From a phage: a DNA stretch of 64,000 nt. Within the stretch, counting starts at the first letter, position 1. The number at the start of each line of letters is the position of its first letter. The stretch lies in the sequence record PZ674596.1. One strand, 5' to 3'. The notes beneath the pieces are model-generated. The model did no database searches, was not told the origin of the DNA, and worked only from the letters and a program-made list of their open reading frames with translations. The position numbers and the translations under genes are program-made. Positions 7,027-62,896 of this stretch are shown here, piece after piece.

Positions 7027-7043
7027 TCCCATTACGTGACCAG

Positions 7044-7072
7044 TAAGGCGTCTACGGACGCCTTACTTTTTG
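7044..7072 (+). terminator. Rho-independent terminator after SSB gene
   Basis: Hairpin TAAGGCGTC-tac-GGACGCCTTA followed by CTTTTT. Confidence 0.6.
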
Positions 7073-7086
7073 GAAGGAATGTACCG

Positions 7087-8031
7087 GTGAATTATCTCTT
7101 CGTAGATGGCAATAGCCTGGGTTATTACCACCAACAATCTGACAAATTGCACAACGGCGAAATGGAAGTACAGGCTGCTTTCGGCTTTGTTAAGAACGTC
7201 CGTCGTTATGCCTCCATCCTCCATGCCCGACCTATGATTCTTTGGGATGGATTTAGTGACAAGCGCCGCGACTTTTACCCGGACTACAAAGCAAATCGCG
7301 ACGACGATCCTGATATGAAAAAGATGAAGGAAGGCTTTGCTATCCAGAAGCCATACATCCTCAAAATGATGACCGCGCTTGGAGTTACCCAACTCATTGC
7401 AAAAGATGCAGAAGCGGATGATCTGGCCGGGCTGCTGGTAGCCAGCATTGCACCGCAGCCAATCGTTGAACACATCTATCTGTTAACAGGCGATAGCGAC
7501 TGGCTTCAGTTAGTTCGCGAAAACGTAAGCTGGGTAAGCCTGCGCGAAGACGCCAAAAACAAGCAGGTTAATTTTGAGCAATTTGCGGAACTGACAGGAT
7601 TCGCTACTCCTCGCGCATTTTTGGAAGCAAAAGCATTACAAGGCGATAACTCGGACAACATTAGCGGTGTTGGTGGCATTGGTGCTGGCGGTGCGAAAGA
7701 GCTGCTGCATGAATGGGGAAGTGTCGCAACGATGGTACGCGGCATCAACGACGGCTCAATCGTGGTTGACAAAGGACGCCATAAGACCGCCTTCAACAAA
7801 CTAGCGAAGAATGCCTTCAACGAGAAAACAGGCTGTCGAATGCTCGAAGCGTTCAAGAGAAACATCACGCTAATGAACCTGATTGAGACGAAGTTTCCGC
7901 CTACCGAAATCGAAACAATCAAAGGCAATCGTGACGTGAAAGCATTCGAGCAACTGTGCTACGAGCTGAATTTCCGTTCGTTCCTTGAAGACCTTGAAGT
8001 GTTTGTTCTTCCATTCGAAAGGTATTGCTAA
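7087..8031 (+). CDS. 5'-3' exonuclease / flap endonuclease (T4 RNase H / T5 D15-like)
   Basis: FVDGNSLGYY N-terminal nuclease motif and H3TH motif GDNSDNISGVGGIGAGGAKELL; start placed at in-frame GTG 7087 after GGAAGGA, because table start 7036 lies inside the upstream terminator hairpin. Confidence 0.8.
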   Translation: MNYLFVDGNSLGYYHQQSDKLHNGEMEVQAAFGFVKNVRRYASILHARPMILWDGFSDKRRDFYPDYKANRDDDPDMKKMKEGFAIQKPYILKMMTALGVTQLIAKDAEADDLAGLLVASIAPQPIVEHIYLLTGDSDWLQLVRENVSWVSLREDAKNKQVNFEQFAELTGFATPRAFLEAKALQGDNSDNISGVGGIGAGGAKELLHEWGSVATMVRGINDGSIVVDKGRHKTAFNKLAKNAFNEKTGCRMLEAFKRNITLMNLIETKFPPTEIETIKGNRDVKAFEQLCYELNFRSFLEDLEVFVLPFERYC

Positions 8032-12158: not shown

Positions 12159-12691
12159 ACCGCTGACAGCATACACAATCAACTACCGCTGATAGCATAT
12201 CGAGAGTCTATCTCACCGCTCACAGCATACTTTACTCGATTTTTTACCGCTGACAGCATACTTAAGAAATTGCATGAATAATGTGTCCCGGTATGGGTAT
12301 AACCAGAACAAAATTACCGCTGGCAGCATACGAATGTCTGACATATACCATTAATTACCGCTGATAGCATATCCAAACAAAAATTCCTCAATAAAACACC
12401 GCTGACAGCATACGTTCTATCAGGGAGTAGCAGGCAATAAATGCCTTTCACTACAAGCAATCAGCGCAATAGCAATAGAATGTTAGTGAGCGCAAACCTA
12501 TATGGAATGCACTCTTCGAGGTTAGTAACCACTGGGGAGGTATGACAGAGCATTGAGTGGTGATAGATGATTTACCGCTCACAGCATACGTTCATCTCAC
12601 TATACCGCTGGTAGCATATCTTTAACCGTTCACAGCATACTTTTCAGAAAAATAGCCGCTGATAGCATACATTTCACCGCTGACAGCATAT
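12159..12691. repeat. iteron array: 12 direct copies of 16-bp ACCGCTGACAGCATAC (incA-like, downstream of repA)
   Basis: Copies start near 12159, 12185, 12215, 12246, 12316, 12357, 12398, 12574, 12604, 12625, 12655, 12676; all in one orientation, 1-2 mismatches each. Confidence 0.85.
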
Positions 12692-13785
12692 CAAAGCAGT
12701 TTGAGACTATTGGAAAGGATCTCAATCATCTTGATATTTTCAGGCGTCAAATTCTGCGAAAGTTCGGTTATCTTGTTGATAATGTTCTGTTTGGCATCAA
12801 TTTCCCCAGCTTTCTCATCTGGTTTTTTGGGTTCGATGTCTTCAGGTTTTGGCGGTGCGACTTTGAGTTTTGGATTGCGGCTGTGAATCTGGATATAGAT
12901 CGACCGCCCACGCTTAATCTCGCTGTATTCGAGATAGCCCAAATCTTGGAGAGCTTTTAAGCCGTTACGTATAGTCTGATTCTGCGAGCTGACATTCCTG
13001 CTACTCAAATTGAGTCGCGCACGCAATCGAGCAAGCGATACCGGCGCAGGCTTGGTTGGAAGACTTTCGATGAAGGTGTACAGAGCCTGTGCTGTTTCTT
13101 TGCGTGGTAGCTTATTGATAACCTTTAACTGCAAAAGAACCTTATGGTCAAAGCGATATAGTTCGGCCAGCTTCGGTTCTGCATAGAACACCACCGTATC
13201 TTTCTGCTCGTTGTAGTCCACGCTATTGATGAGGTGCACCATCAGAAGCGAGATCTTGTTAGAGCCGTCGACGTTCTTTTCTTCATACGTTCTCTGGAAA
13301 GACAGAGTTGTACGCATGATCTTCAAAAGACTGTTTGTAAGCCGGTCGCGGAGTGTTTTGCGGATCTGTGACGATGGATAGCCACAAAACTTAGCAAATT
13401 TCGTGATGCTTAACTCGACACGACCGTTAGGTTCGCCGTATTCTGCCAGCGAACGCACAACGCCCACCCACGTTTTGAAATCATGATCCATGTCGAGACG
13501 AGGACCGGTTATCTTGATATCGGAATAGCCTTCAGAACGGGCTACTTCGAGCTGGACAAGCTCCTTTGAAGCATCGATCTCATTTGGCTTGTTACGTTTA
13601 CTGTATTTTGTTCCCTTAAGCGTGGGGACGAACAACCCCAGTCGCATCAACGCAATTGGTTGGACTGTATTGTTGCTATTAGGGACAAGTTCCCCTGTGT
13701 ACAATTCAAGGGAACCTTCTTCAAAGTTGTCGATGTTATCTTCTACTTCTTTGTTATTTTTACCTTTTTTATTTTTTGTGGACAT
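12691..13785 (-). CDS. repA: plasmid replication initiator RepA (P1 RepA / RepFIB-like)
   Basis: 364 aa from ATG 13785 (the table's N-terminal 40 aa is read-through of the iteron region); motifs SNNTVQPIALMRLG, DIKITGPRLDMD, LYTFIESLP, HSRNPKLK match my recollection of P1 RepA; flanked by iterons on both sides. Confidence 0.8.
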   Translation of the reverse strand: MSTKNKKGKNNKEVEDNIDNFEEGSLELYTGELVPNSNNTVQPIALMRLGLFVPTLKGTKYSKRNKPNEIDASKELVQLEVARSEGYSDIKITGPRLDMDHDFKTWVGVVRSLAEYGEPNGRVELSITKFAKFCGYPSSQIRKTLRDRLTNSLLKIMRTTLSFQRTYEEKNVDGSNKISLLMVHLINSVDYNEQKDTVVFYAEPKLAELYRFDHKVLLQLKVINKLPRKETAQALYTFIESLPTKPAPVSLARLRARLNLSSRNVSSQNQTIRNGLKALQDLGYLEYSEIKRGRSIYIQIHSRNPKLKVAPPKPEDIEPKKPDEKAGEIDAKQNIINKITELSQNLTPENIKMIEILSNSLKLL

Positions 13786-13805
13786 GTGGACACCTTTGTC
13801 ATTCA

Positions 13806-13907
13806 ACCGCTGACAGCATACTTGATTTGCCGCTGACAGAATACCAAAAACAGTTGGCAGCATACGGTGAACCGCTGACAGACTATCAATTACCGCTGAC
13901 AGCATAC
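13806..13907. repeat. upstream iterons (4 full + 1 half copy), incC/origin-like
   Basis: Same 16-bp iteron near 13806, 13829, 13871, 13892 plus half-site GGCAGCATAC near 13856. Confidence 0.75.
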
Positions 13908-13947
13908 ATGAACATGACTTCAGACCAGTCGTGGCGCGGGTTACAGC

Positions 13948-14020
13948 GATCGGGGATCTTATTTGATCTATATAAGGATCTATCTATGGATCTCTTTATT
14001 AGGATCTATCCTGTGGATAT
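13948..14020. promoter_or_regulatory. origin-like region: six GATC sites in ~60 bp plus DnaA-box-like TGTGGATAT
   Basis: GATC at about 13948, 13955, 13965, 13977, 13989, 14003; CCTGTGGATAT at 14010-14020; next to the iterons. Confidence 0.55.
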
Positions 14021-21938: not shown

Positions 21939-22044
21939 CATATGGTGGGGGATATCCCCACCTTCTCTTTGATTTGTAAGCCTTGTTTAAACACATAAGA
22001 TAACAACTTGTTTAAACGCACCAAAAAAGAAAAAGGAAAAACAC

Positions 22045-30932: not shown

Positions 30933-31514
30933 TAGATAAGTACAAACTATTCATAAAGTGAATTGTAAGTGCTAAGATCTGATAGTTTCCAGTCGTAGAC
31001 TGGAGACTCGACCTGATGGGTGGGGGTAAGCGTCACTGGCGTCAGGTTTAAAAAAGCTCACTACCAGCGTAGAACTGGTGCCGTTTAGGTGTCGGGGAAG
31101 GGGGAACCAAAGTGAGCAGAGACAAGGGTCACTTTATGATTGTCGAGTCTGGGGTGTTTCGAGAGGTTGAATCCAGTACTCCCCTTCATAAAGTGTGGGA
31201 AGATCTCGGTTCTGGGGTGCTGTCATCCATAACTTCCCAAGTCTAAGCTGGCAGTAGACTTAGACCATAACTTTTCAGGTTATGAAACGACCAGGTTGGT
31301 GAGAGATTTTTATACTCACCTCCCTGGGAGAGTATTACCTGAAAAGACAACCTCTCACTTCGTTCGAGGTGAACTTCACTCACTTCGTTCGTTCAGTTCA
31401 GGTTTATAAAAACCTGTTCTGGGAAGTAATTTGTTTATTTTAATAATTATTAACACGCACGCGTGTGCGCACGCGCGAGGAAAAATCGGCGCGGCGCTTG
31501 ATTCAGGAGTTTAT

Positions 31515-32105
31515 ATGACGACGAAGACACCAGCCCGATCGCAAGCAAAAACTCGCAAAAAAGCCAAAAACAAAAATTCCCCCCGCACCAATCCCACAAC
31601 GCCTGTCGTAGAGTTCAATCCCCAGCTTAAAACCGTGAAAATCTTTAGTGATGGCTCTTGCCTTAAAAATCCGGGTGGCCCGGGCGGTTACGGTATCGTT
31701 CTCCAGTATCGTGGTGAGGAACGCGAGTTCTCAGATGGTTTTCATAGCACCACCAATAACCGCATGGAGATGATGGGGGCACTTATCGGGCTGGAGCGTT
31801 TGAAATATCCATGCAACGTTATTTTGCACTCTGATAGCCAGTATCTGAAAAACGGCATGACACAGTGGATGAAATGGTGGAAACGCAATGGATGGATGAC
31901 TTCTGACAAAAAACCGGTAAAGAATGTTGATCTGTGGAAGCGTCTGGATGAGGCCGCAAGTCGACATAATGTTCGCTGGAAGTGGGTTAAAGGTCACGCC
32001 GGGCATCGTGAAAATGAAATATGTGATCGACTCGCGAAGATCGCAGCTTTTTCAGCAGCAGATATGCCTCACAAGAAAGATATTGGTTTTGTTTATAATA
32101 AATAG
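31515..32105 (+). CDS. rnhA: ribonuclease HI with basic N-terminal extension
   Basis: Near-complete match to RNase HI core ([35 protein letters not shown]); start at ATG 31515 after CAGGAG. Confidence 0.85.
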
Positions 32106-43542: not shown

Positions 43543-44643
43543 TCACACTGCGCGGAATGCGATTTCGCCAGGTATTACTTCACCTTGCCAATACATTTGG
43601 GCAGCAACGCGATCTGCGAGGTCACGATAAATAGCTGTAAATTCGCTATCTGGACGACTAATAACGGTTGGTGTTCCGTTATCCAGATCTTCACGAAGAG
43701 AGATATGAAGTGGCATTTGGCCTAACAACTGCGTGTTGTATTTCTCGGCCAGTTTCTGTGCGCCACCGGTGCCAAAAATTGGCTCGTGATGACCGCAGTT
43801 ACTGCAAATATGCACACTCATGTTTTCAACGATACCCAGTACCGGCACTTCGACTTTTTCGAACATCACAATGCCTTTCTTCGCATCGATCAGCGCGATG
43901 TCTTGCGGCGTAGTTACCACAACCGCACCAGTTACAGGAATGTTCTGCGCCAGCGTCAACTGAATATCACCAGTGCCCGGCGGCATATCGAGAACAAGAT
44001 AGTCCAGATCAGGCCACAATGTTTCCTGCAACATCTGCATTAACGCCTTGCTCGCCATCGGTCCACGCCACACCATTGCATTGTCGTCGGTGACCAGATA
44101 ACCAATAGAGTTGGTTGCCAGGCCATGAGACATGATAGGTGCCATGTGAGTACCGTCAGGTGAGGTTGGACGTTGGTTTTCCGCGCCCAGCATGGTTGGA
44201 ATTGATGGACCATAGATATCGGCATCCAAAATACCAACTTTCGCACCTTCAGCAGCCAACGCCAGTGCCAGGTTTACCGCCGTGGAGGATTTACCCACGC
44301 CGCCCTTGCCTGAGCTGACGGCGATAATGTTCTTAACGCCATTAATGCCTGGTTGGTTTTTGACGCGCTTAAGCGTGGCAATGTTGTACGACAGCTTCCA
44401 GTCAATAGCCTTTGCGCCAGTGATACGGAGCAGATCACCACTACATTGCTCTTTCAGGTCTTCAAAAGGCTTATTCCACACGAAAGGCATGATTAGTTCG
44501 ACATGCAGTGTGTCATCCATCAACGCAACATGGTGTAACGCTTTAAGCGTAGTCAGGTTGTGTTTCAGGGTTGGGTGCTGAAAATTAGCCAGCGTACCGG
44601 CTACCATTGCTCTCAGGGCATCCGGCGATTTGGACTCGCTCAT
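43543..44643 (-). CDS. mrp: Fe-S cluster carrier ATPase Mrp/ApbC (host-type)
   Basis: 366 aa; deviant Walker A SGKGGVGKSS; matches my recollection of enterobacterial Mrp. Confidence 0.9.
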   Translation of the reverse strand: MSESKSPDALRAMVAGTLANFQHPTLKHNLTTLKALHHVALMDDTLHVELIMPFVWNKPFEDLKEQCSGDLLRITGAKAIDWKLSYNIATLKRVKNQPGINGVKNIIAVSSGKGGVGKSSTAVNLALALAAEGAKVGILDADIYGPSIPTMLGAENQRPTSPDGTHMAPIMSHGLATNSIGYLVTDDNAMVWRGPMASKALMQMLQETLWPDLDYLVLDMPPGTGDIQLTLAQNIPVTGAVVVTTPQDIALIDAKKGIVMFEKVEVPVLGIVENMSVHICSNCGHHEPIFGTGGAQKLAEKYNTQLLGQMPLHISLREDLDNGTPTVISRPDSEFTAIYRDLADRVAAQMYWQGEVIPGEIAFRAV

Positions 44644-44800
44644 CCCGTCTCCTTTATTTTAATTTGCGCAATTGTCGCCTTGTAGTGTACTCCAGCTACG
44701 ACATTTAATCATTTATGAGAAATGCTGTTATCACATGGCAGACATAAGGCCATTTTGTTACTATCAAGCCCCTTTTCACTACAAAGAAGTAATGCCTACT

Positions 44801-46834
44801 ATGACCCAAGTCGCGAAGAAAATTCTGGTGACGTGCGCGCTGCCGTACGCTAACGGCTCAATCCACCTCGGCCATATGCTGGAGCACATCCAGGCTGATG
44901 TCTGGGTTCGTTACCAGCGAATGCGCGGCCACGAGGTTAATTTCATCTGTGCCGACGATGCCCACGGTACGCCGATCATGTTGAAAGCACAGCAGCTTGG
45001 TATCACACCGGAGCAGATGATTGGCGAAATGAGTCAGGAACATCAGACTGATTTCGCAGGCTTTAACATCAGCTATGACAACTATCACTCGACGCACAGC
45101 GAAGAGAACCGTCAGTTGTCCGAGCTTATCTATACTCGCCTGAAAGAGAACGGTTTTATTAAAAACCGCACCATCTCTCAGCTGTACGACCCGGAAAAAG
45201 GCATGTTCCTGCCGGACCGTTTTGTAAAAGGCACATGCCCGAAATGTAAAGCGCCGGATCAATACGGCGATAACTGTGAAGTCTGCGGCGCTACTTACAG
45301 CCCGACTGAACTGATCGAGCCGAAATCGGTAGTTTCTGGTGCTACGCCGGTAATGCGTGATTCCGAACACTTCTTCTTTGATCTGCCTTCTTTCAGCGAA
45401 ATGTTGCAGGCATGGACCCGCAGCGGTGCGTTGCAGGAGCAGGTGGCAAACAAAATGCAGGAGTGGTTTGAATCTGGCCTGCAACAGTGGGATATCTCCC
45501 GCGATGCGCCGTACTTCGGTTTTGAAATTCCGAACGCACCGGGCAAATATTTCTACGTCTGGCTGGACGCGCCGATTGGCTACATGGGTTCCTTCAAGAA
45601 TCTGTGCGACAAACGCGGCGACACTACCAGCTTCGACGAATACTGGAAGAAAGACTCCACCGCCGAGCTGTACCACTTCATCGGTAAAGATATCGTTTAC
45701 TTCCACAGCCTGTTCTGGCCTGCCATGCTGGAAGGCAGCAACTTCCGCAAGCCGACCAACCTGTTTGTTCACGGCTATGTGACGGTGAACGGCGCGAAGA
45801 TGTCCAAGTCTCGCGGCACCTTTATTAAAGCCAGCACCTGGCTGAATCATTTTGACGCCGACAGCCTGCGTTACTACTACACTGCGAAACTCTCTTCGCG
45901 CATTGATGATATCGATCTCAATCTGGAAGATTTCGTTCAGCGTGTGAATGCCGATATCGTTAACAAAGTGGTTAACCTGGCCTCCCGTAATGCAGGCTTT
46001 ATCAACAAGCGTTTTGACGGCGTGCTGGCAAGCGAACTGGCTGACCCGCAACTGTACAAAACCTTTACTGATGCCGCTGAAGTGATTGGCGAAGCATGGG
46101 AAAGCCGCGAATTTGGCAAAGCTATCCGTGAAATCATGGCACTGGCTGACCTGGCTAACCGCTATGTTGATGAACAGGCTCCGTGGGTGGTGGCGAAGCA
46201 GGAAGGACGCGATGCCGATCTGCAGGCGATTTGCTCTATGGGCATTAACCTGTTCCGCGTGCTGATGACGTACCTGAAACCGGTACTGCCGAAACTGACT
46301 GAACGTGCAGAAGCATTCCTGAATACAGAACTGACCTGGGATGGTATCCAGCAACCGCTGCTGGGCCATAAAGTGAATCCGTTCAAGGCACTGTATAACC
46401 GTATCGATATGAAACAGGTGGAAGCACTGGTGGAAGCATCCAAAGAAGAAGTGAAAGCCACAGCTGCACCGGTAACTGGCCCACTGGCTGACGACCCGAT
46501 TCAGGAAACCATCACCTTTGACGACTTCGCCAAAGTTGACCTGCGTGTGGCGCTGATTGAAAACGCGGAGTTTGTCGAAGGTTCTGACAAACTGCTTCGC
46601 CTGACGCTGGATCTCGGTGGTGAAAAGCGTAATGTCTTCTCAGGCATCCGTTCCGCTTATCCAGATCCACAGGCACTGATTGGTCGTCACACCATTATGG
46701 TGGCTAACCTGGCACCACGTAAAATGCGCTTCGGTATCTCTGAAGGCATGGTGATGGCTGCTGGCCCCGGCGGGAAAGATATCTTCCTGTTAAGCCCGGA
46801 TGCTGGTGCTAAACCTGGCCACCAGGTTAAGTAA
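44801..46834 (+). CDS. metG: methionyl-tRNA synthetase (host-type)
   Basis: 677 aa from ATG 44801 (table ORF has spurious 43-aa extension); [16 protein letters not shown], Zn knuckle CPKCK..CEVCG; near-identical to enterobacterial MetG as I recall it. Confidence 0.95.
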
Positions 46835-48075: not shown

Positions 48076-48189
48076 AACATTGATAATGGCGGTCAAAATT
48101 TGATTCTTTTCTATAAGAATCCGTTGATCGCCACTACTCCCCTTCCATACCTGCAATCATACCCTTAAATATCAATAGGTTATGGTTGT

Positions 48190-48935
48190 TTATACAAATA
48201 AGAAAACAACTAAATAACAGATCAACGAAACGTCAACGCTTTCACCCGATTTGGTCTAAAAAATTGACGTTTTCACACATCACTTCTTATACCCGTAACT
48301 CTACGCAGCAGACAGCGCCACAGCGTCCAATTTTCACCACAGACGACCCAACACACTACCAACAAAAACACACGCTCAAAATCGCTCCCGTTGCGTTACA
48401 CAACCATATAAACAACTTATTTTCAGGCATAACAAAACAACTAAATAACACACATGCCATTCCCAAAAACAACCAACCTCTTTATGGCAGGCTACCGAAA
48501 AGACCCACCTCTTCTCCCCAGGCTACCGGACAACCAACCTAACTTTCACAGGCAATCCGAAAACATTCATACGCGCGATACCCACGACACGCCATTCCCC
48601 AAACAGCGAAGAAACACCAGAATCACTGAAACCCCAACGAAGCCTGTAACCGCAAGGATTCTCTCAATCCCAAAAGACACGAAACAGAACAATCACGGGA
48701 AACGCCATTACCCAATACACGAATAACTACAAAAGCCTTTCACACACTCCAGACAAACAACTCAAACACAATAACGAAAGGAATCGCCCACCTGCCATTA
48801 CTCCATACACGGAGAAGAACAATCACCAAAACGACGAGAACACCCCATAGAAGAACCACCGCAAAACGAACGAAACCACATACACCGACAGAGAAAACAG
48901 CACACCCAATTCACCAACAGAAATAGTCGCCGTAT
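48190..48935 (+). repeat. G-depleted A/C-rich low-complexity tract with dispersed direct repeats
   Basis: ~750 bp with almost no G on plus strand; 17-mer AAAACAACTAAATAACA twice (near 48199 and 48434); GCCATT(C/A)C(C/T)C-type repeats near 48456, 48591, 48704, 48794. Confidence 0.7.
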
Positions 48936-49127
48936 AGAACATTCTGGAAGGAGTGAGCATTAACGCCTATAGAGAGGTTGAGACAGATAAAACACAACAT
49001 GTATAGCGAAGAAGCCAGGTATGTATAAGTGGGGAGGGAAGGAGGGGTGTCGCCTCCTTTTTCGTATTTATTCAACTCCTGATTTTATCCCCCGTAACAC
49101 CCCTACGGTCAGCCTTCGGTCCATACA

Positions 49128-49266
49128 GGGAAAAGGCTGCATCCCGCTACAGAAACGGCTGGGTTGCCTTCGGGGAACGGCTGGGGATTTTCAGGGAAAC
49201 GGTCGAGTTGCCTGTGTGGATTTCGGGAAAAGGCTCGATGCCGGTTCAGGAACGGTGGCGTACCGG
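49128..49266 (+). repeat. tandem imperfect repeats RGGAAAMGGCT (6 copies, ~21-31 bp period)
   Basis: GGGAAAAGGCTGCATCCCGC, AGAAACGGCTGGG, GGGGAACGGCTGGGG, AGGGAAACGGTCGAG, GGGAAAAGGCTCGATGCCGG, AGGAACGGTGGCG; related 20-mers at 52353-52395. Confidence 0.7.
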
Positions 49267-49616
49267 TATAGCGAGAGGGAGAGTTGCGGCTACCCACCTG
49301 TAATGTGCGGGAAGAAGAGAGGCGCTCACGTAGGCGGACTTGCTTACCGCTGGATTCCCTCTGAATGCCCAGCTACAGCGTAATTGTGCCAGACAGCCAA
49401 CGGGTCACAATCGATTTCAGTAGGTTTTTGGGGAGAGGATTACTCTGCCACCAGCCACTTTCGGCCACTAAATCAGAATAATGTAAAAAGTGTACTCGGT
49501 ACTGAACCTGAAAACTCACTGCCAAAACCACATTCACCGGAATAAAATCCTTTTTCGCCTGTGCGTTATTGCGATAATAACACCATCAAGAAAACATGTT
49601 GTTTAAGGATTGCTTT

Positions 49617-50099: not shown

Positions 50100-50411
50100 A
50101 TGAAAAAATCATTGGTTCTTGGTCTGGACAAAGACCAGAAGAGAAAAGAGAAGCCTGCGCTGGTTGCTCAATTAACTTTGCTGGACATCGTTGCCAATGG
50201 AACCTCTATTCGTCTGTTCCGTGAAACAGCGGTGTCTTTCGATAAAAACACCTTTACTCGTTATGTAATGAATGTTCGTCGCCAGCGTGGAAAAGGCTGG
50301 GTGGCATTTCAAAGAATGTGGCCGGAACATCAGCTCGAACTGGCTTTGATGGAAGTTAACCGCGTGGCCCAGCAAGAGATTCAGAGAGCATCAGTGATGG
50401 CAATAGCCTGA
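50100..50411 (+). CDS. hypothetical protein
   Basis: 103 aa from ATG 50100 after ACGGAG. Confidence 0.45.
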   Translation: MKKSLVLGLDKDQKRKEKPALVAQLTLLDIVANGTSIRLFRETAVSFDKNTFTRYVMNVRRQRGKGWVAFQRMWPEHQLELALMEVNRVAQQEIQRASVMAIA

Positions 50412-51425: not shown

Positions 51426-51775
51426 ATATGGGCGATTTCAAGAAACGCCTGAAGGAAAGAGCCGAGATGGTCAGAAAGCAAAACGCCTCTTCTGTCATCA
51501 GATACGCAAGGCAGTTTAGTCGCAACAACAAATCAGTTGAGGAAAAGATCCTTAGCGTAATCGTGCGATAATTATTAAGGCCACCAGCATTGGTGGTCTT
51601 AAATGACCATCCTGTTTCCCTCAGGCTAATAACACCAACCTCTTACCTCCAGGCAACCGACAAACCCACCTGTTCCCGTCCGGCTACCGCAACTTTCCAC
51701 TTTGACGCCTTATTCGTACAACGATAATTAACGCCAACAAGAAAACAATTTGTTATTTACGATAAGGAATTAATC

Positions 51776-52258
51776 ATGAATTTTATCGCTACTGTAAACG
51801 CACCCGCACATGGCAATATCGCTGTAACGTTCTCTGACATTGAAAAACGAGTACTTGGTGCATGGCGCGACAATGAGACGGTAGAACTGTCAGCACAAGA
51901 AAAATGCATTATTGCACGCGACATCATTGGCAATCGTCGTTACTCGAGGGTATTTGAGAAAGCATATGTGGTAAATTCTGGATTCGGAACGTTCGTCTTT
52001 CCGGTGCGCTCCGGGCGATTCTGCCAGTCCAAGCTGATTGAGTTCGCTACGCAGATTTCTTTCTGGATTAAAACTCAATCGTCGTTCAAATTTTCCGACG
52101 ATGAAGCAGTATCGCAGGGGATGCGGATCGCCAACAATGCGATTAAATGCAAAAACATTACGTATACCGCTGGCGTTGATACATGGAAACTGTTTTGCGC
52201 TAACTTTATGCTGAATGTATACGCAAGCAACCGCATCCACATCCTTGATGGCGTGTAA
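51776..52258 (+). CDS. hypothetical protein
   Basis: 160 aa; ATG after AAGGAATTAATC. Confidence 0.5.
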   Translation: MNFIATVNAPAHGNIAVTFSDIEKRVLGAWRDNETVELSAQEKCIIARDIIGNRRYSRVFEKAYVVNSGFGTFVFPVRSGRFCQSKLIEFATQISFWIKTQSSFKFSDDEAVSQGMRIANNAIKCKNITYTAGVDTWKLFCANFMLNVYASNRIHILDGV

Positions 52259-52267
52259 CTGAGAAGA

Positions 52268-52288
52268 GGGCCAGAAACGGCCCTTTAT
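52268..52288 (+). terminator. Rho-independent terminator
   Basis: GGGCC-agaaac-GGCCC followed by TTTAT. Confidence 0.6.
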
Positions 52289-52511
52289 CTATAGCCACCA
52301 GCTGCCGCAGGGAAATTTTCAGAAGCGGCGAGGAACGTATTCATGAGCCGACGGGGGAACGGCCAGGATTTTTTCGGGAAACGGCTGCATTCGCCTTTGT
52401 GTAGAAAAAACATCGGGAAGCTGGTGGAATCCAACCAGCGGTTGTCGGACAGGTGAGCGGGGAAAATTATGATGACTTTCGTCACCTGAGACATCCAGAT
52501 TTCTTTCGTAG

Positions 52512-52557
52512 CATAATCACATACGTGATTAAGTGGTGTGATTAAGTGAAAAATCAC
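52512..52557. promoter_or_regulatory. two adjacent operator-like palindromes (GTGATTA / TAATCAC family)
   Basis: TAATCAC-atac-GTGATTA and GTGATT-aagtgaaa-AATCAC, with direct repeat GTGATTAAGTG x2. Confidence 0.45.
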
Positions 52558-52804
52558 GCGCACATAATACGCGAGCGGATACAGAACAAAACAAAATACC
52601 GATCCGCACCGACAAATAAGCGCGGATCACATAGCAAGACTAAAAGCCAATGATTAACCATACTCTATAGCGCAATATAACGCGTTTTAAGCGCGTTAAT
52701 GTGTTAAGTAATGGGCATGTACTGGTAAGGATATAAAAGCGCGTCTATGGCGTTATTTTGGCGCTTATTTTTATGTTGTTGGAGTGAGTTAAAGACAATA
52801 AAAA

Positions 52805-52871
52805 ACGCGCCATCAATGGCGCGTTATTGTGGAAGTATTGGAAACGAAAAAAGCGCCCATAGTGGGCGCTC
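52805..52871 (-). terminator. tandem hairpin terminators downstream of minus-strand island genes
   Basis: AACGCGCCAT-ca-ATGGCGCGTT and AGCGCCCA-tag-TGGGCGCT, each with A-run on plus strand (T-run on minus); second hairpin recurs near 53347. Confidence 0.55.
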
Positions 52872-52875
52872 GATT

Positions 52876-53106
52876 TTATTTGTGTAAACTGATTTTAAAT
52901 CCCATTTCTACGAACGCTTTTAACATTAAAAATATATCAGCGTCGTTCACGTCTGCTTTTTTTCGCTCCTGGTCGCTCAATAAGTCAATTTTGCGCGTCG
53001 TTTCATCTATAAGCTCGACTGCGCGCCCAGCGTAACCAGCGATCCCAGCGATGCGATTAACATAATATTCATTATGGACGTTAACGCCAGCGATAAGAAC
53101 AAACAT
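52876..53106 (-). CDS. small hypothetical protein
   Basis: 76 aa; RBS AAGGAG 6 nt upstream of ATG. Confidence 0.45.
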   Translation of the reverse strand: MFVLIAGVNVHNEYYVNRIAGIAGYAGRAVELIDETTRKIDLLSDQERKKADVNDADIFLMLKAFVEMGFKISLHK

Positions 53107-53330: not shown

Positions 53331-53378
53331 TTTTAAAGCTCCTTTAAAGCGCCCATAGTGGGCGCTTGATTCCATTAA

Positions 53379-54622: not shown

Positions 54623-55144
54623 TCAAAACGGTAAAATTCGTTCAACCCAATCGAAGAATACAAGTGTTTTTCTGCCGTCTTCTAACTTAAGAGTGACCTG
54701 GCAAGCATCAACGCCTCTTGATATCCCTTCTATTTCACGACCGTCTGCCATGTAGACCCTTATAGATTTGCCGTTTTGGTAAGCCTGACGACATATCTTA
54801 AAAAAGTCACGACGTGATGGCTGATTGTCAACATAGTCTGGATGTATTGTTAGCCTACCTTTGAACTCGCGAGCAATGCCATCGATTACACCTGATTCAA
54901 TTGTGCTAATGCGCTCAAGTGGGAGTCTTATACGATTTTCTTTATCATATGGAAGCGGGCATAAATCTAGCTTATTGCGGGAAGGCATTGTCCCCTGAAC
55001 GTACATGCAAAACACCTGACCGTCTTCAAGCGTGACTCTTACAGGAATGTTGTTTTTCCGCCAGAACATAAGTATGTTTTCAGCATGTTCGTAGTCTCGT
55101 GGCCAGACTTCTGCTGGAATGCCGTAGGTGATGTCTTTAACCAT
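54623..55144 (-). CDS. hypothetical protein with internal tandem repeat of ~80-aa domain (weak Sm/Hfq-like signature)
   Basis: 173 aa; halves share R..N.IPVRVTLEDGQV / GKSIRVYMADGREIEG pattern; ends 3 nt before the secreted-protein gene. Confidence 0.45.
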   Translation of the reverse strand: MVKDITYGIPAEVWPRDYEHAENILMFWRKNNIPVRVTLEDGQVFCMYVQGTMPSRNKLDLCPLPYDKENRIRLPLERISTIESGVIDGIAREFKGRLTIHPDYVDNQPSRRDFFKICRQAYQNGKSIRVYMADGREIEGISRGVDACQVTLKLEDGRKTLVFFDWVERILPF

Positions 55145-58356: not shown

Positions 58357-59916
58357 CTAATCTCGTTTCAGAATTCCAAAATCGAATGCGCCATCAACAG
58401 GCAATACACCTTCCGCAAAGCCAGGTGTGGTGTCGATGATGTGTTTTCGCTCATAAGAGTGAGACAACAGGTATTTGTTGCTAGTGTCAATGAAATCAGT
58501 GATAAAACACACGTTTGCCTGATTCTTCTTGGCTCGTAAGCCACGACCGACACGCTGCCTCATTTCAACTTCTGCTTTCCCACCACCAGCCAGAATGACC
58601 GCACCAACGCTTGGCACATCAACACCGACATCCAGAATAGTCGAGCCTATTAAAACATCTATGTCGCCAGACGCTAAACTGTTCAGCTTTGCTTGCCTTG
58701 TCGACTGGTTCGATTCCCCATAAATGAAGTCAACTCTAAGGCCGGACTCTTTCATCATTTCCATCAGGATTTGCCCGTGGCGTTTAAGACGAACCAGAGT
58801 CATACAATTGAGAGAATGTTGCTTATAGAGCAATGCTTCGCGAACAATGGCCTCATTACGTCCCAAATTATACACGATCCCCAACTGATAAGCCTTTTGG
58901 TAGGCAGTGCTCATACCTACTCTAAAATTGAGGTATTTGTTGGCAAGTTCTGCCTTGATTCTGGCCTCGTCCGGCTTGTAGGCAACTTTATGATAAAGGA
59001 AGTATGGTTTTGCCAGAATGCCTCTATCAATCAGGTACTTTTCTGTGACTTTAATTTCAATTCGCCCGGCCACCGCCATCAGGCGCATGTTGGCTTCCGT
59101 CGAATCCTTCATGAACGGCGTGGCTGTAAGCGCCAGACGATAGTCTGCGTTCACACATAATCTGGCGATGTCATAGAAATTTGAGCCTGAAGACTCATGC
59201 GCCTCTTCCAGAATAAGAAGAGAGACACTTGAAAGGAAGCGTTTCACCAACTCCCGACGTTTGAGGTGGTAGCTTTTCTTATCTGGTGTTGCATCGCGTG
59301 GTGGTTCTTCGAGGAAACTTGCAAGAGTTTGAACTGTAGCGACGTTGATATGTCGTGATACCTGGAACTCACCCGAGCCAATGACTCCAACCTTTTGGTC
59401 CTTTAACCACGGTTCGCCATTTTCGGCGCGGTAGTCGATGGATCTCTGGAAGTTTTCGGCCATTTGAAACATCAGAACAGAGCGGGTTGTTAAAAATAAT
59501 GTCATTCGACCGATACGTGCAGCTGCTTTGCAGGCAACGTTAGATTTCCCACCACCAGTAGCGATCTGGGCAATCATCATTCCCTCGCGAACTAGTGTTT
59601 CCACAGCCTGATCCTGATATGCATAATCAGGATTGTATGGGAATGGGTTAACCGCCGGATTTGGCTTTCCAAGCGCCGGGGCTTTGTCTTTGCGGATATG
59701 AACACATTTGATGCCCGCCTTGTTCAAGTTCGCCGCTACAGGCTTGGCAAAGCCAGCAGGGAACGAGTTTTTACTCCAGTTGAACATCGTGCTTGTGCCC
59801 TTCCAGTCGCCAGTCTCGACTTCGTAGCTCAACATTTGCTGCACCAGTTGCTTTACCTTGTCATCTGCGCCAGAAATAAGCGCATTTACTGCGTTAGATA
59901 CAATCCGAACAGTCAT
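58357..59916 (-). CDS. SF2 helicase (UvsW-like, tentative)
   Basis: 519 aa; motif I ATGGGKS, motif II ILEEAHE, motif III TATP, motif VI QRVGRGLR; N-terminal region loosely resembles UvsW N-domain. Confidence 0.65.
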   Translation of the reverse strand: MTVRIVSNAVNALISGADDKVKQLVQQMLSYEVETGDWKGTSTMFNWSKNSFPAGFAKPVAANLNKAGIKCVHIRKDKAPALGKPNPAVNPFPYNPDYAYQDQAVETLVREGMMIAQIATGGGKSNVACKAAARIGRMTLFLTTRSVLMFQMAENFQRSIDYRAENGEPWLKDQKVGVIGSGEFQVSRHINVATVQTLASFLEEPPRDATPDKKSYHLKRRELVKRFLSSVSLLILEEAHESSGSNFYDIARLCVNADYRLALTATPFMKDSTEANMRLMAVAGRIEIKVTEKYLIDRGILAKPYFLYHKVAYKPDEARIKAELANKYLNFRVGMSTAYQKAYQLGIVYNLGRNEAIVREALLYKQHSLNCMTLVRLKRHGQILMEMMKESGLRVDFIYGESNQSTRQAKLNSLASGDIDVLIGSTILDVGVDVPSVGAVILAGGGKAEVEMRQRVGRGLRAKKNQANVCFITDFIDTSNKYLLSHSYERKHIIDTTPGFAEGVLPVDGAFDFGILKRD

Positions 59917-59998
59917 AAACCTCTTTCCTTAGTGCCTTTTGTATGTTATTTGGCTATTATAATAAGTAAGTGATTACTTAGTGGATTGTAGCAATAAA

Positions 59999-60679
59999 AT
60001 GGATGTAAAAATCACGATTTTGCAGGTTGATGTTGCCAACCTTCGCCCGAATACCTGGAACACCAATTCGGTTGGTGCGCAGAATTTTGAAAAACTGAAA
60101 GGTTCTATCGAAAAATTGGGCTTTTTTAAGCCAATTTTGGCTCGTGAACTTGAAGATGGATTTTTTGAAATCCTCGGCGGCGAACATCGCTGGCGTGCTG
60201 CTATTGAGCAAGGAATTTCAACGGTTCCGGTGCTTTCTGTGGGCAAAATTAGCGATGTCGTAGCTAAACAGATGTCACTGGTGGACAACGAGCGATACGG
60301 TGAAGACGACCAAATCGCATTGCAACGCTTCATTGAAGAAATTCAGTCAGAACTTGACTATCAACTGTCTGAAATCGCCCCGTATGACGACGAAATCTCG
60401 ATGGTTTTAGCAAAAGAGGCGGCAATCGACCTTGAAGCACTGGAGGCGTTGTCTCGTGGTAGTGATGAGCCTGTCGATACCGACAAACGAGAGAAAACCG
60501 AACGTGTGGGTGCGGAACATCAGACCATGCGCTTCAAAGTAACTTTCGATGCGTCAGATCGTGTTGCAGAAACCATAAAAAACATCATCAAAGAGCAGGC
60601 TATTAACACCGGTAATGAAATGGAGAACGCTGGTGAGGCTCTGGTGTGGCTGGTCGACTACTACAAGGAGCGTATGTAA
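59999..60679 (+). CDS. ParB N-terminal-domain (ParB/Srx-like) protein 1
   Basis: GGEHRWRAA ParB box-II-like motif; start uncertain (ATG 59999 or GTG 59981). Confidence 0.5.
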   Translation: MDVKITILQVDVANLRPNTWNTNSVGAQNFEKLKGSIEKLGFFKPILARELEDGFFEILGGEHRWRAAIEQGISTVPVLSVGKISDVVAKQMSLVDNERYGEDDQIALQRFIEEIQSELDYQLSEIAPYDDEISMVLAKEAAIDLEALEALSRGSDEPVDTDKREKTERVGAEHQTMRFKVTFDASDRVAETIKNIIKEQAINTGNEMENAGEALVWLVDYYKERM

Positions 60680-61347
60680 TGACCAAAAAGTTTGAAATCG
60701 TATATCGCGACCCGGCAGATCTTATTCCCTATGAGATGAATGCCAAAAAGCATGATGAACAGCAGATCCGAGATCTGGCCGCAGCCATTAAAAAGCGCGG
60801 ATTTGACCAGCCAATTACGGTCGATAAGAACGACGTAATTATTACTGGCCACGGCCGCCGTGAGGCTGCAATTTTTGCTGGACTTGAGCGCGTACCGGTT
60901 ATTGTTCGCGATGATCTCAGTGATGACGAGGTTCGTGCGAAGCGCCTTGAAGATAACCGACTTGCCAGCATTGATTACGATGCAATTAAGCTACAGAAAG
61001 AGCTTGAGTCGCTTGTTCTGGACGATATCGAGGTTTTCGGCTTTGAAGAGCGTGAGTTGAATGTTCTCGTTGGCAGTATGACAGAAGAAATGGACACCGA
61101 TTCGCTAGTTATCGATCTTGGCGAAGAAACTAAACGACAGAAGGATGAACACACCGAGATCAGTCGTGAAGTTGCAGCGGAAGAAGTACGTGTTGTCGAC
61201 GTATTGGGCTTTAAAACGCTCCCTGCTGGCTCTGCCATTGTTGTTGGTGATTTGCTTGCCCACATGGAAGAAATGACGGGAGAAAGCGGGGTAGACGCAT
61301 TTGTGGCATATGCGGAGAAGATCTCTTCCGGGGAGATGGCTGCATGA
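60679..61347 (+). CDS. ParB N-terminal-domain (ParB/Srx-like) protein 2
   Basis: 222 aa from ATG overlapping upstream stop; ITGHGRREAA motif; acidic C-terminal half. Confidence 0.5.
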   Translation: MTKKFEIVYRDPADLIPYEMNAKKHDEQQIRDLAAAIKKRGFDQPITVDKNDVIITGHGRREAAIFAGLERVPVIVRDDLSDDEVRAKRLEDNRLASIDYDAIKLQKELESLVLDDIEVFGFEERELNVLVGSMTEEMDTDSLVIDLGEETKRQKDEHTEISREVAAEEVRVVDVLGFKTLPAGSAIVVGDLLAHMEEMTGESGVDAFVAYAEKISSGEMAA

Positions 61348-62009
61348 GCAAATACATCATCAACGTATCGTTTCAGACACGCGTAAATAAAACCACGCGC
61401 ACGTTGGAAATCGCTGAGTCGTTCGGGCTTGGCCTGGACGAAAAAGAGTGGACGCTTTACGACAATCTGGAGCTGGAAGTGAAGCAGGGCGATGTGGTGT
61501 ACATCACCGGCCAATCCGGTTCTGGCAAATCCGTTGTGCTGCGCGAGTTGCAACGCCAGATGAAGGATGAAGGGCTTTCTGTAGCCTCCATCGATGATTT
61601 TACCTTCGATAATGAGGTTAACGTCATCGATCAGTTGGGCAAAACGACCAGTGATGCGCTTGGGTTGTTATCTATGGCTGGTCTGAACGATGCATATCTG
61701 TTTGTTCGCAAGCCTTCTGAAATGTCAGACGGCCAGAAATATCGTCTCAAGATTGCCAAACTGATTGAGTCAGGCGCTAAAGTGTGGGCTGCTGACGAGT
61801 TCGGCGCTGTTCTCGACCGTGTAACCGCTCAGGTTGTGGCGTCTAACCTCCAGCGTGCCGCTCGAAAGGTTGGTGCGACGGTAATGGTGGCGACGACTCA
61901 CGAAGACCTGAAGAACGCGCTGCGCCCGGATATGCAGATCACCAAGCACTACAAAGAACGCGTGAAGGTGGAATATCACAATGGTAGTCACGATGAGGTC
62001 CATTCATGA
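61344..62009 (+). CDS. soluble ABC-type ATPase
   Basis: 221 aa; Walker A GQSGSGKS, signature-like SDGQKYRL, Walker B VWAADEF, H-loop TTHED; no membrane domain. Confidence 0.55.
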   Translation: MSKYIINVSFQTRVNKTTRTLEIAESFGLGLDEKEWTLYDNLELEVKQGDVVYITGQSGSGKSVVLRELQRQMKDEGLSVASIDDFTFDNEVNVIDQLGKTTSDALGLLSMAGLNDAYLFVRKPSEMSDGQKYRLKIAKLIESGAKVWAADEFGAVLDRVTAQVVASNLQRAARKVGATVMVATTHEDLKNALRPDMQITKHYKERVKVEYHNGSHDEVHS

Positions 62010-62896
62010 CGGACATCATCATTAAACGCTACCGCCCTGAAGAGTTTCCGCGTCATCTGGACTTTCTGGAGCGAATGACTGTTACAAAGGGAACTGTAGA
62101 GGACTGGCACGCTCTTAAGTCGCTTCACTACAAAACAGACGGCAAACCTTTCGCGCCAACTTACTATCGCTGCGAACTTGATGACCGTCTGGTGGGCGTC
62201 GTGGTTATGGCTTACCCGAAACTACTGTTGGCACCTCGCCACCGCATGTTTCCTAAGTTGAAACCAACCACTAATACCACCGTGGCTAACCAGTACTGGG
62301 GTCGGTACGTGAATAACAACTTTGCGGTGATCAGTCGCTCAGTTGTGGATACTCAGTATCGTGGCGTAGGCGTCTCTTATCGAATGATTAACCTGGTTAG
62401 CAGGATGCATGACCGGCCAATCATTGAGATCCAGTCCTCGATGAGCAAATACAATCCCTTCGCCATGAAAGCAGGGTTTAAGTTCATCCGCCCTGAGCGA
62501 CCGAAGAGCTATGAAAGTGCACTGCGTGTATTCCAGCGCCATTTCCGTTCTGACCCGGGTAATAACGAGGCGATCGTCAAAGAGTTGTTCGCAATGAGCG
62601 AGTCTCGTCGTCGCCGTGCACTGCGTGATCTGGTGGCGGACTACCACAAGAACAGTTCCCTGGCAAAAGCTGGGCGGAATCGTGGCACGACGATTCAGGA
62701 CATTGCCGACAGTCTGGTGGACGAGGCCAGCATTGTGAAGCTGCTCAAGGACATTCACAACCTGAGCTTTACGTCTCCGTTGTATGGTGTGTACCGAAAC
62801 CCTGACTTTGGCCGTCGACTGCCTGACACGCTGCCACTGCTGGCATTCGACAAACAACCTTTGGATAAACCGTTAGAAATTGCTTTACCGGCATAA
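62006..62896 (+). CDS. hypothetical protein (possible GNAT-like fold)
   Basis: 296 aa; RSVVDTQYRGVGVSYRMINLV resembles acetyl-CoA-binding motif; overlaps ATPase stop. Confidence 0.4.
   Translation: MTDIIIKRYRPEEFPRHLDFLERMTVTKGTVEDWHALKSLHYKTDGKPFAPTYYRCELDDRLVGVVVMAYPKLLLAPRHRMFPKLKPTTNTTVANQYWGRYVNNNFAVISRSVVDTQYRGVGVSYRMINLVSRMHDRPIIEIQSSMSKYNPFAMKAGFKFIRPERPKSYESALRVFQRHFRSDPGNNEAIVKELFAMSESRRRRALRDLVADYHKNSSLAKAGRNRGTTIQDIADSLVDEASIVKLLKDIHNLSFTSPLYGVYRNPDFGRRLPDTLPLLAFDKQPLDKPLEIALPA

Follow-up and report, generated by a model that had tools for sequence, protein, structure and literature searches.

Phased direct-repeat arrays in SSU5/pHCM2-type phage-plasmids as candidate protein-binding sites

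The iterons found at the replication origins of P1, F, R6K and RepFIB-type Rep replicons, and those of the lambda O type, are tandem direct repeats of 17-22 bp with a period of about 22 bp; they share one orientation, are conserved over half of each unit and are gained or lost as whole units. In phage P4, two clusters of one short direct repeat, ori and crr, lie several kilobases apart in one replicon; replication depends on both, and each is a target of the alpha protein. Here we describe a locus that recalls each of these systems: two arrays of a half-conserved 22-bp direct repeat, array 1 and array 2, in a 64,000-nucleotide stretch of phage DNA (record PZ674596.1, hereafter the window).

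The window is, by its database matches, an SSU5/pHCM2-type phage-plasmid. Over the 5 kb around the arrays, identity is 98.6% to Escherichia phage CMS-2020a and 97% to phage Cyrano (pLF82 of E. coli LF82), and parts of the same stretch also match Klebsiella phage-plasmids and Salmonella phage SSU5. Elements of this type abound in Klebsiella, E. coli, Salmonella (pHCM2 of S. Typhi among them), Enterobacter and Citrobacter. In the literature that we found, the cis-acting sites recognised so far in the group are the RepA replicon and the partition locus only, and the phage-plasmid papers open to searching gave no description of the arrays reported here. They form a conserved, phased direct-repeat element and, judged from comparisons of sequence, are candidate binding sites for a protein in a large clinical phage-plasmid family.

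The repeat arrays and their conservation

Array 1 (49127-49268, plus strand) consists of six direct units whose 13-nt cores start at 49127, 49149, 49171, 49193, 49224 and 49246. Each core contains an invariant heptamer, GRAAMGG, starting at 49130, 49152, 49174, 49196, 49227 and 49249 on the plus strand, and all units share this orientation. The spacings are 22, 22, 22, 31 and 22 bp, with the single 31-bp step between units 4 and 5. This agrees with an earlier note on the window, made from the letters alone, which had described six imperfect tandem units with a period of about 21-31 bp at 49128-49266. When 45 units from eight representative sequences are pooled, the unit consensus reads cRGGRAAMGGCTG(G), after which conservation is poor for about nine bases. 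The heptamer occurs 32 times in the whole 64 kb, counting both strands. In 300 dinucleotide-preserving shuffles, the largest number of heptamers within 150 nt was three (8 of the 300), and six were never reached. The literal motif RGGAAAMGGCT with one mismatch allowed, which is looser than the heptamer, has 8 sites compared with 3.6 expected. Tandem Repeats Finder, the check that the earlier note had recommended, does not report array 1 even at a score of 30, because conservation covers only about half of each unit; the array is visible only through its core motif.

Array 2 (52308-52395, plus strand) has two clear units, with cores at 52353-52365 and 52375-52387, and degenerate copies before them. 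The heptamers of the clear units, at 52356 and 52378, are again 22 bp apart. The recurrence of the repeat 3 kb away, also claimed in the earlier note, is confirmed by GGGGAACGGCCAGG (52355-52368) and GGGAAACGGCTGCATTCGCC (52376-52395). The degenerate copies occupy 52310-52338 and read GGGAAAT at 52310, GAAGCGG at 52322 and GGAACGT at 52332. Array 2 is a paralog of units 3-4 of array 1, with 81% identity over 31 nt, and the paralogy takes in the T-rich spacer and the flank GCCTKTGTGKA. No third cluster was found in the window or in positions 1-48 kb of Cyrano.

A query of 651 nt over array 1, searched against plasmid records, matched 718 of them: 310 from Klebsiella, 224 from Escherichia, 90 from Enterobacter, 49 from Salmonella, 25 from Citrobacter and 9 from Cronobacter. 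Of the records listed, nearly all lack an annotated gene under the array match. The similarity that survives between clades is confined to the block 49023-49289. In a comparison set of seven annotated relatives and about 60 IMG/VR contigs, array 1 stands at the same place in all; the repeats, whose absence from related elements the earlier note had named as an argument against its own proposal, are thus present in the relatives. Five clades can be told apart: the E. coli clade; pTB212; SSU5/pHCM2/Enterobacter; a four-unit clade D (L126, L157, L215); and Klebsiella, in which array 1 has four clear and two degenerate units.

The array is phased across these clades. Among the 205 inter-unit spacings of 56 unique arrays, 165 are 22 bp, 30 are 31 bp, three are 23 bp and one is 21 bp; the remainder are 44, 53 or 66 bp and are read as places where a single core was lost through mutation. 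The E. coli and SSU5 clades align without gaps over 153 nt, flanked by gap-rich sequence; their cores are 78% identical and their spacers 60%. In PhiR41_1 one unit of 21-22 nt is missing, as would be expected if units come and go whole. In 33 loci, array 2 lies 1.5-4.3 kb downstream of array 1 in identical orientation, and both arrays recur in all five clades.

One relative has lost both arrays. In Y. pestis pMT1 the stretch equal to about 19.5-53.1 kb of the window is gone, and with it both arrays, the genes between them and the upstream nucleotide-metabolism genes. The junction (L238, 10780-11600; NZ_CP009702.1) holds a transposase-like ORF that by eye we take to be IS200/IS1541. pMT1 retains the FljA-like, UvsW-type, ParB_N and SbcCD-like genes and a RepFIB-type replicon. 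No Yersinia record is found among the 718 array matches, compared with 62 among the FljA-like matches. pMT1 replicates through RepA as a plain plasmid and is stably inherited. Because it has lost both arrays, they appear to be dispensable for plasmid replication and inheritance.

Coding capacity, RNA structure and protein binding

We considered whether the array is a repeat within a protein. The ORF that covers it (49021-49383, 120 codons; CYRAN_104) is broken in other clades, and no frame is open through array 1 in all of them. Because the period of 22 is not a multiple of three and the ORF is interrupted elsewhere, the array is not coding; the ORF calls CYRAN_103, CYRAN_104 and SSU5_109 are probably spurious. 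Structure in the RNA was likewise sought. RNAalifold on 19 representatives (about 270 columns) gave only -12.8 kcal/mol for the plus strand and -7.0 kcal/mol for the minus strand, and the array sequence of the window, folded singly, did no better than its shuffles (z-scores 0.0 and +0.45). Rfam returned no relevant match, CsrB/CsrC included, either at the gathering threshold or at E values up to 10. Apparent compensatory changes in the spacers (CGGT..ACCG versus CGGG..CCCG) did not generalise and were set aside. The array is not a structured RNA or a single-stranded DNA element.

Published transcriptomes of LF82/Cyrano lysogens place CYRAN_103, in the A/C-rich tract upstream of array 1, at the detection floor and CYRAN_102 among the expressed genes; CYRAN_104, the ORF over the array, is near the floor even where CYRAN_105 is clearly expressed (PMC9928086 S1 table). 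Since CYRAN_104 is low where CYRAN_105 is expressed, the promoter of CYRAN_105 is placed downstream of the array, and the promoters of the genes enclosed by the two arrays are indeed found downstream of array 1.

On balance, and with moderate confidence, we read the arrays as phased sites in double-stranded DNA for a sequence-specific DNA-binding protein. This reading is the best supported because a conserved half alternates with a free half in every unit, the period equals two helical turns, indels are absent, units are gained or lost whole and share one orientation, and neither coding nor folding accounts for the pattern. The cooperative protein binding that the earlier note had deduced from the regular spacing is favoured on the same grounds, with 22-bp steps in 165 of the 205 spacings and cores better conserved than spacers. 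Each 22-bp unit would comprise a 13-bp recognition half, cRGGRAAMGGCTG, and a free half. As 22 bp is about two helical turns, successive sites would lie on nearly one face of the helix, where the bound protein could form a cooperative filament or a wrapped complex. Array 2 may pair with array 1 through the bound protein, by looping or handcuffing, with the small gene cassette enclosed between them.

Several observations weigh against binding of this kind. Searches of 13 neighbouring genes with Pfam and PHROGs revealed no DNA-binding domain and no candidate binder, and the two invariant proteins bracketed by the arrays (103 and 160 aa) have no recognisable DNA-binding fold. The constant spacing could reflect in part inheritance from the original tandem duplication rather than selection. 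Finally, every unit is oriented with the sense strand of the genes on either side, and for this reason a function in RNA during lytic growth is conceivable, the expression data being from lysogens.

A role at the RNA level would have the array transcribed, perhaps only after induction, and its GGGAAAMGG motifs occupied by an RNA-binding protein in many copies; the array would be a sponge or a target, of an FljA-family protein or of CsrA, for instance. GGA motifs are frequent in the array, as in CsrB, and an FljA-family gene lies 2.2 kb away. We nevertheless consider this alternative improbable. The fold is neither conserved nor stable, and Rfam holds no match. Transcripts in lysogens are very low, and the arrays come after terminator-like hairpins, not before them. 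The strict spacing would be unexpected for a sponge, and pMT1 keeps its FljA-like gene without arrays.

The FljA-family gene ('repressor of phase-1 flagellin'; 54623-55144, minus strand) matches PF03614 over its full length (E 3e-82), and the C-terminal half of the protein gives sub-threshold Hfq/Sm-like matches. It occurs in 831 plasmids, roughly 110 of which lack the arrays, and is core even in non-flagellate Klebsiella (341) and in Y. pestis pMT1 (62). Because it is a core gene in non-flagellate hosts, the distribution suggests targets beyond flagellin, and possibly a phage-plasmid origin of Salmonella fljA. FljA binds the leader of the fliC mRNA. In array 2, the 12-mer TGAGCCGACGGG (52344-52355) is identical to part of the 5' leader of E. 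coli K-12 fliC (L237); both continue with GGAA, and GRAAAC is found in the fliC leader hairpin. This lead did not hold, as 35% of shuffled leaders share a match of at least 12 nt with the window, which makes it insignificant window-wide, and TGAGCCGACGGG is confined to the E. coli clade. We regard it as a long shot that the FljA-family protein, which every SSU5-type phage-plasmid encodes, has its native nucleic-acid targets in the arrays. If it were true, Salmonella FljA would be a domesticated phage-plasmid regulator whose recognition of the fliC leader co-opts the GRAAAC-type motif that the arrays repeat.

RepA, partition and candidate roles of the arrays

The earlier note had suggested the ParB-like proteins as possible binders and had listed RepA beside them for binding tests; neither is supported. 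The repA gene, of the Rep3 family (12691-13905, minus strand), is flanked on both sides by its own iterons, at least 13 copies of ACCGCTGACAGCATA (12159-12695 and 13806-13911). Because these differ in sequence from the array units, RepA is excluded as the array binder. It is hardly credible, then, that the arrays are additional iterons of RepA and act on copy number or incompatibility through titration or handcuffing. The 22-bp period and the clusters away from the origin do resemble P1 incA, but the RepA iterons share no core with cRGGRAAMGGCTG, and pMT1 has its RepFIB-type replicon without the arrays. The RepA origin region also holds, at 13967-14010, three copies of TCTATATAAGGATCTATC, which resemble the GATC-containing 13-mers of an unwinding element.

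A centromere-like site for the ParB_N proteins (59981-61347), the suggestion of the earlier note, with clusters arranged like parC1 and parC2 of pB171, is very unlikely. In some partition loci, repeat arrays flank the operon, and two ParB_N genes are present in the window. These genes, however, lie about 8-11 kb from the arrays; no partition ATPase is found between or beside the arrays, and there are no par operon genes at 46-56 kb. The ATPase at 43543-44643 is of the Mrp/NUBPL type, and the ParB_N pair is associated with an ABC-type ATPase in a block that leads to the terminase gene in pMT1. Cyrano has its parA-type locus elsewhere, without such repeats, and pMT1 keeps the ParB_N genes and is stably inherited, yet has no arrays; an essential role in partition is unlikely because of these two facts. 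The arrays are independent of RepA and, by these indications, of the partition system.

Two neighbouring loci came to light in this comparison. The two tandem ParB_N genes, the ABC-type ATPase and a 296-aa gene form one block at 59981-62896 (3450-6594 of L238 in pMT1). As this block runs toward the large terminase gene in pMT1, it suggests a function in packaging or DNA modification rather than in partition. At 43543-46834, the gene for an Mrp/ApbC-type (NUBPL) ATPase and a gene for what the Cyrano annotation calls methionyl-tRNA synthetase point away from each other. The ATPase, which lysogens express and which is named 'MinD' in the same annotation, does not belong to the partition type. On the E. 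coli chromosome mrp and metG are arranged in this divergent way, and because of this match the pair has the look of a locus captured from a host.

All clades keep a gene-free region of about 1.4 kb, at the end of which stands array 1. Directly upstream of the array and its leader is an A/C-rich non-coding tract of 850 nt (48100-48950, plus strand), with about 70-80% A+C and about 14% G on the plus strand and a composition alike in all five clades. The GC skew reaches -0.53 and the AT skew +0.64; the sign flips at about 48.95-49.02 kb, and the cumulative GC skew has a local minimum at about 48.9-49.0 kb. Conserved motifs run collinearly through the tract, including AAAAATTGACGTTTTCACAC (48259-48278), which has the appearance of an UP element with a -35 box. 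The tract also contains two repeat families, one of four copies of GCCATTMCCCAAWAC and one of three copies of a 30-nt unit, ACCMACCT..CAGGCWAYCG. The 30-nt repeat, ACCAACCTCTT....CAGGCTACCG.AAA, is present three times in the tract (48472-48562) and twice upstream of the promoter of the 160-aa gene (51634-51693); this family thus also recurs about 3.1 kb apart, at an offset unlike that of the GGGAAAMGG units. A long tblastn alignment made the tract look like a conserved ORF, a candidate that was dropped for in-frame stops and frameshifts in other clades. The tract could be a very strong Rho-loading insulator (C>G), encode a non-coding RNA without structure, or belong to an origin.

The cross-clade block begins exactly with the leader of array 1 (49023-49126, plus strand) and ends with the tail of the array, CCGGTAYAGMG... 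(49259-49289, plus strand). The leader contains an invariant TATAAG (49024-49029), the G-cluster GGGGAGGGAAGGAGGGG, the AT-rich ATTTATTCAAC..TTTTAT, ATCCCCCGTAAC and CGGTCAGCCTTCGG. Its AT-rich stretch (49063-49090, about 26 bp) is conserved and lies about 35 bp upstream of array 1. A terminator-like hairpin with a T-run (49036-49062, plus strand), reported by a consensus scan, stands 66 nt before array 1. It is distinct in the E. coli clade and less so in Klebsiella, and it is not apparent in the SSU5 clade. A second terminator-like hairpin, read from the sequence, follows the 160-aa gene (52268-52290, stem-loop 52268-52283, plus strand). It is not listed by the consensus scan because its T-run is short (TTTATCT), and its loop is itself a repeat unit, CCAGAAACGGCC, or GGCTGGAAACGCC in other clades. 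Array 2 sits behind this hairpin, where plus- and minus-strand transcription converge.

Between the arrays is a cassette of small genes whose content varies among clades. The most compact clade keeps only two of them, homologs of the 103-aa gene (50100-50411, plus strand) and the 160-aa gene (51776-52258, plus strand), and both are found in every clade, the latter always immediately upstream of array 2. AF2 models of the two proteins (pLDDT 80 and 83, respectively) showed no significant fold match when compared with the PDB by Foldseek, and the families do not reach beyond SSU5-like elements. Inside the conserved 103-aa gene, a unit-like GGAAAAGGCTGGGTGGCATTTCA (50288-50322, encoding GKGWVAF) shares 71-74% of its bases with array units over 34 nt, either by chance or, perhaps, as an extra site. 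In front of every enclosed gene stand a sigma-70-like promoter and, after it, the palindrome AAACAANTTGTTT.

The wider window and Cyrano bear on whether this region could start replication. Besides repA, the window encodes a FEN-type 5'-3' exonuclease (7036-8031), RNase HI (31431-32105; PF00075, E 1e-44), a UvsW-type helicase (58357-59916), Pol III alpha, a gp32-like single-stranded DNA-binding protein (SSB), a RecA-like protein and an SbcCD-like nuclease, together with ribonucleotide reductase, thymidylate synthase, DHFR, a DnaQ-like exonuclease, Dam, the two ParB_N-domain proteins and the FljA-family protein. Cyrano adds, outside the part equal to the window, a terminase, structural genes, the parA-type partition locus, a DnaB-like helicase, a primase and a ligase. 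RNase HI, a separate FEN and a UvsW-type helicase form an enzyme set compatible with R-loop-primed replication.

Among the possible roles of the arrays, we rank first, though with considerable doubt, a RepA-independent origin or replication-control element for lytic growth. A secondary origin site, one of the suggestions in the earlier note, is thus a candidate. In a bolder and less probable version, the 1.4-kb A/C-rich region and the arrays would together be the lytic origin of this widespread phage-plasmid family. The role in origin or replication control is favoured because the array has the format of origin iterons; because the phage-plasmid carries its own replication genes, in the window and in Cyrano, and its lytic origin is unassigned; because a sharp local skew flip and an AT-rich stretch adjoin array 1; because pMT1, which is kept as a plain plasmid, has lost the region; and because the layout in two clusters recalls ori and crr of P4. 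Other features speak against an origin. No initiator-like gene adjoins the arrays, as judged by Pfam, PDB-sequence and Foldseek searches on the neighbours, and repA is 36 kb away. Neither a DnaA box nor a long AT-rich unwinding element is conserved across clades, and the DnaA-box-like TGTGGATTT in the 31-bp spacer is limited to the E. coli clade. The position of array 2, at a convergence of transcription, is more typical of a boundary or terminus. Taken as a whole, the explanation that we prefer, an iteron-like binding array independent of RepA and Par with a lytic origin or replication control as its first-ranked role, seems to us evenly poised between right and wrong.

The same convergence leads to a role that is nearly as good as that of an origin. 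Protein bound to the arrays might act as a roadblock or insulator behind the terminators, or loop out the cassette, so that expression of the cassette is controlled and isolated from the upstream genes expressed in lysogeny and from the converging minus-strand operon downstream. Each array is just downstream of a terminator-like hairpin, and the loop of the hairpin at array 2 carries a unit; the arrays bracket clade-variable cargo over 1.5-4.3 kb; and the promoters of the enclosed genes follow array 1. RNA sequencing of lysogens shows the corresponding steps, with CYRAN_102 expressed, CYRAN_103 at the floor, CYRAN_104 low and CYRAN_105 higher (PMC9928086 S1 table). Array 1 is, however, about 290-420 bp from the nearest promoter, no candidate regulator was found, and the terminator hairpins are already there. 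No phage insulator is known to have such a form. A boundary or looping element is, in our judgement, rather unlikely.

Other motifs and scans were examined and dropped. KOPS GGGNAGGG, Chi-like GCTGG tails, DnaA boxes, an ops-like element and the G content for R-loops, judged by eye or by simple counts, lacked conservation or fit. Arrays with a GAAACGG core in IMG/VR proved to be lambdoid O-gene origins or simple tandem repeats and share no proteins of interest with the window. A 14-mer scan of viral contigs gave mostly chance matches, and a three-unit scan of genome contigs gave mostly unrelated taxa among the matches listed.

Several further elements lie around the arrays. The E. coli, pTB212-type and Klebsiella clades retain a degenerate distal unit, TTTTGGGGAGAGGAT, followed by CCACCAGC, which is Chi on the minus strand (49430-49455 in all). 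Over the 64 kb, Chi (GCTGGTGG) has 13 copies, compared with about two expected for a random octamer, and some of them flank both arrays, at 49448-49455 and 52295-52302 on the minus strand and at 52420-52427 on the plus strand. The copy at 52295-52302 is intact in six of eight aligned relatives, and that at 49448-49455 is kept in three clades though non-coding. The palindrome AAACAANTTGTTT, or its core AACAANTTGTT, is found at 22002, 33003, 33732, 42981, 46919, 46970, 49590, 50076, 50980, 51744 and 63316. For several start codons that we checked, such as 22045, 33763, 46996, 50100 and 51776, the distance to the palindrome upstream is about 20-45 nt; at 49549, 50033 and 51700 the palindrome belongs to a 55-nt promoter-leader family. 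Its placement is consistent with an operator, either one bound by a global repressor or one that acts on translation. Beyond array 2, the gene-free stretch (52500-52880) contains an operator-like palindrome, AATCACATACGTGATT, with related copies of TGTGATTAAGTGA. Terminator-like hairpins on both strands also follow array 2, including a bidirectional one, AAAGCGCCCATAGTGGGCGCT, duplicated at 52850 and 53346 (53346-53376).

As a second conserved cis element, the arrays would offer a handle on the switch from plasmid maintenance to lytic amplification, on the start of lytic replication and on the insulation or exchange of the cassette. They would also be usable as a conserved non-coding typing marker. 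If they are sites for an ordinary regulator, the gain is a modest one in annotation.

Comparison with known systems

Like the arrays, CsrB/RsmZ sponge RNAs and ToxI repeats present a short G/A-rich motif many times over on a single strand. CsrB and RsmZ differ from the arrays in that here there is no Rfam match, no presentation of the motif in hairpins and low expression in lysogens, and the hairpins precede the arrays. ToxI-type repeats are near-perfect and 34-45 nt long; the arrays have half-conserved units of 22 nt and no toxin-like gene downstream. Centromeres built of repeats, such as R1 parC, parC1/parC2 of pB171 and F sopC, are phased direct repeats that are bound cooperatively, and the pB171 arrays flank the operon. 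Unlike the present locus, they have an adjacent gene for a partition ATPase or adaptor, and the arrays described here are dispensable in pMT1.

Origin iterons share the format of the arrays. The arrays differ from them in having no initiator gene that adjoins or contains them, in a sequence unlike that of the element's own RepA iterons, and in DnaA boxes and a 13-mer unwinding element that are not conserved. Lambda O-type iterons, five copies of TGGAAACGGC-N6-GCCGAA with a 22-bp period, resemble unit 2 of array 1 (GAAACGGCTGGGTTGCC); they are contained in the O gene and show clear dyad symmetry, unlike the arrays, in which the dyads are irregular. Lambdoid iterons were also seen in the IMG/VR contigs L136 (887-1000), L174, L214 and L216, as five 22-bp units followed by GATC-rich DNA. 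In L136, the only contig whose ORFs were read, they are inside a 366-aa ORF with no Pfam match, the arrangement of a lambda O-type origin.

P4 matches in layout, with its two separated clusters; its repeat, however, is an octamer (of the TGTTCACC type), and no alpha-like primase-helicase is encoded beside the arrays. Phage T4 provides the remaining parallels. There is no sequence relation to its origins, the G content of 31-37% is marginal for an R-loop, and in the E. coli clade the hairpin comes directly after the G-cluster. As at the R-loop origins oriF and oriG, however, the conserved TATAAG, a putative promoter, and the G-cluster could launch a primer transcript. The element carries T4-type genes for a gp32-like SSB, a RecA/UvsX-like protein, a UvsW-type helicase, an SbcCD-like nuclease and RNase H, and, like the arrays, oriE of T4 (repEA/repEB) is a non-coding cluster of iterons beside small genes.

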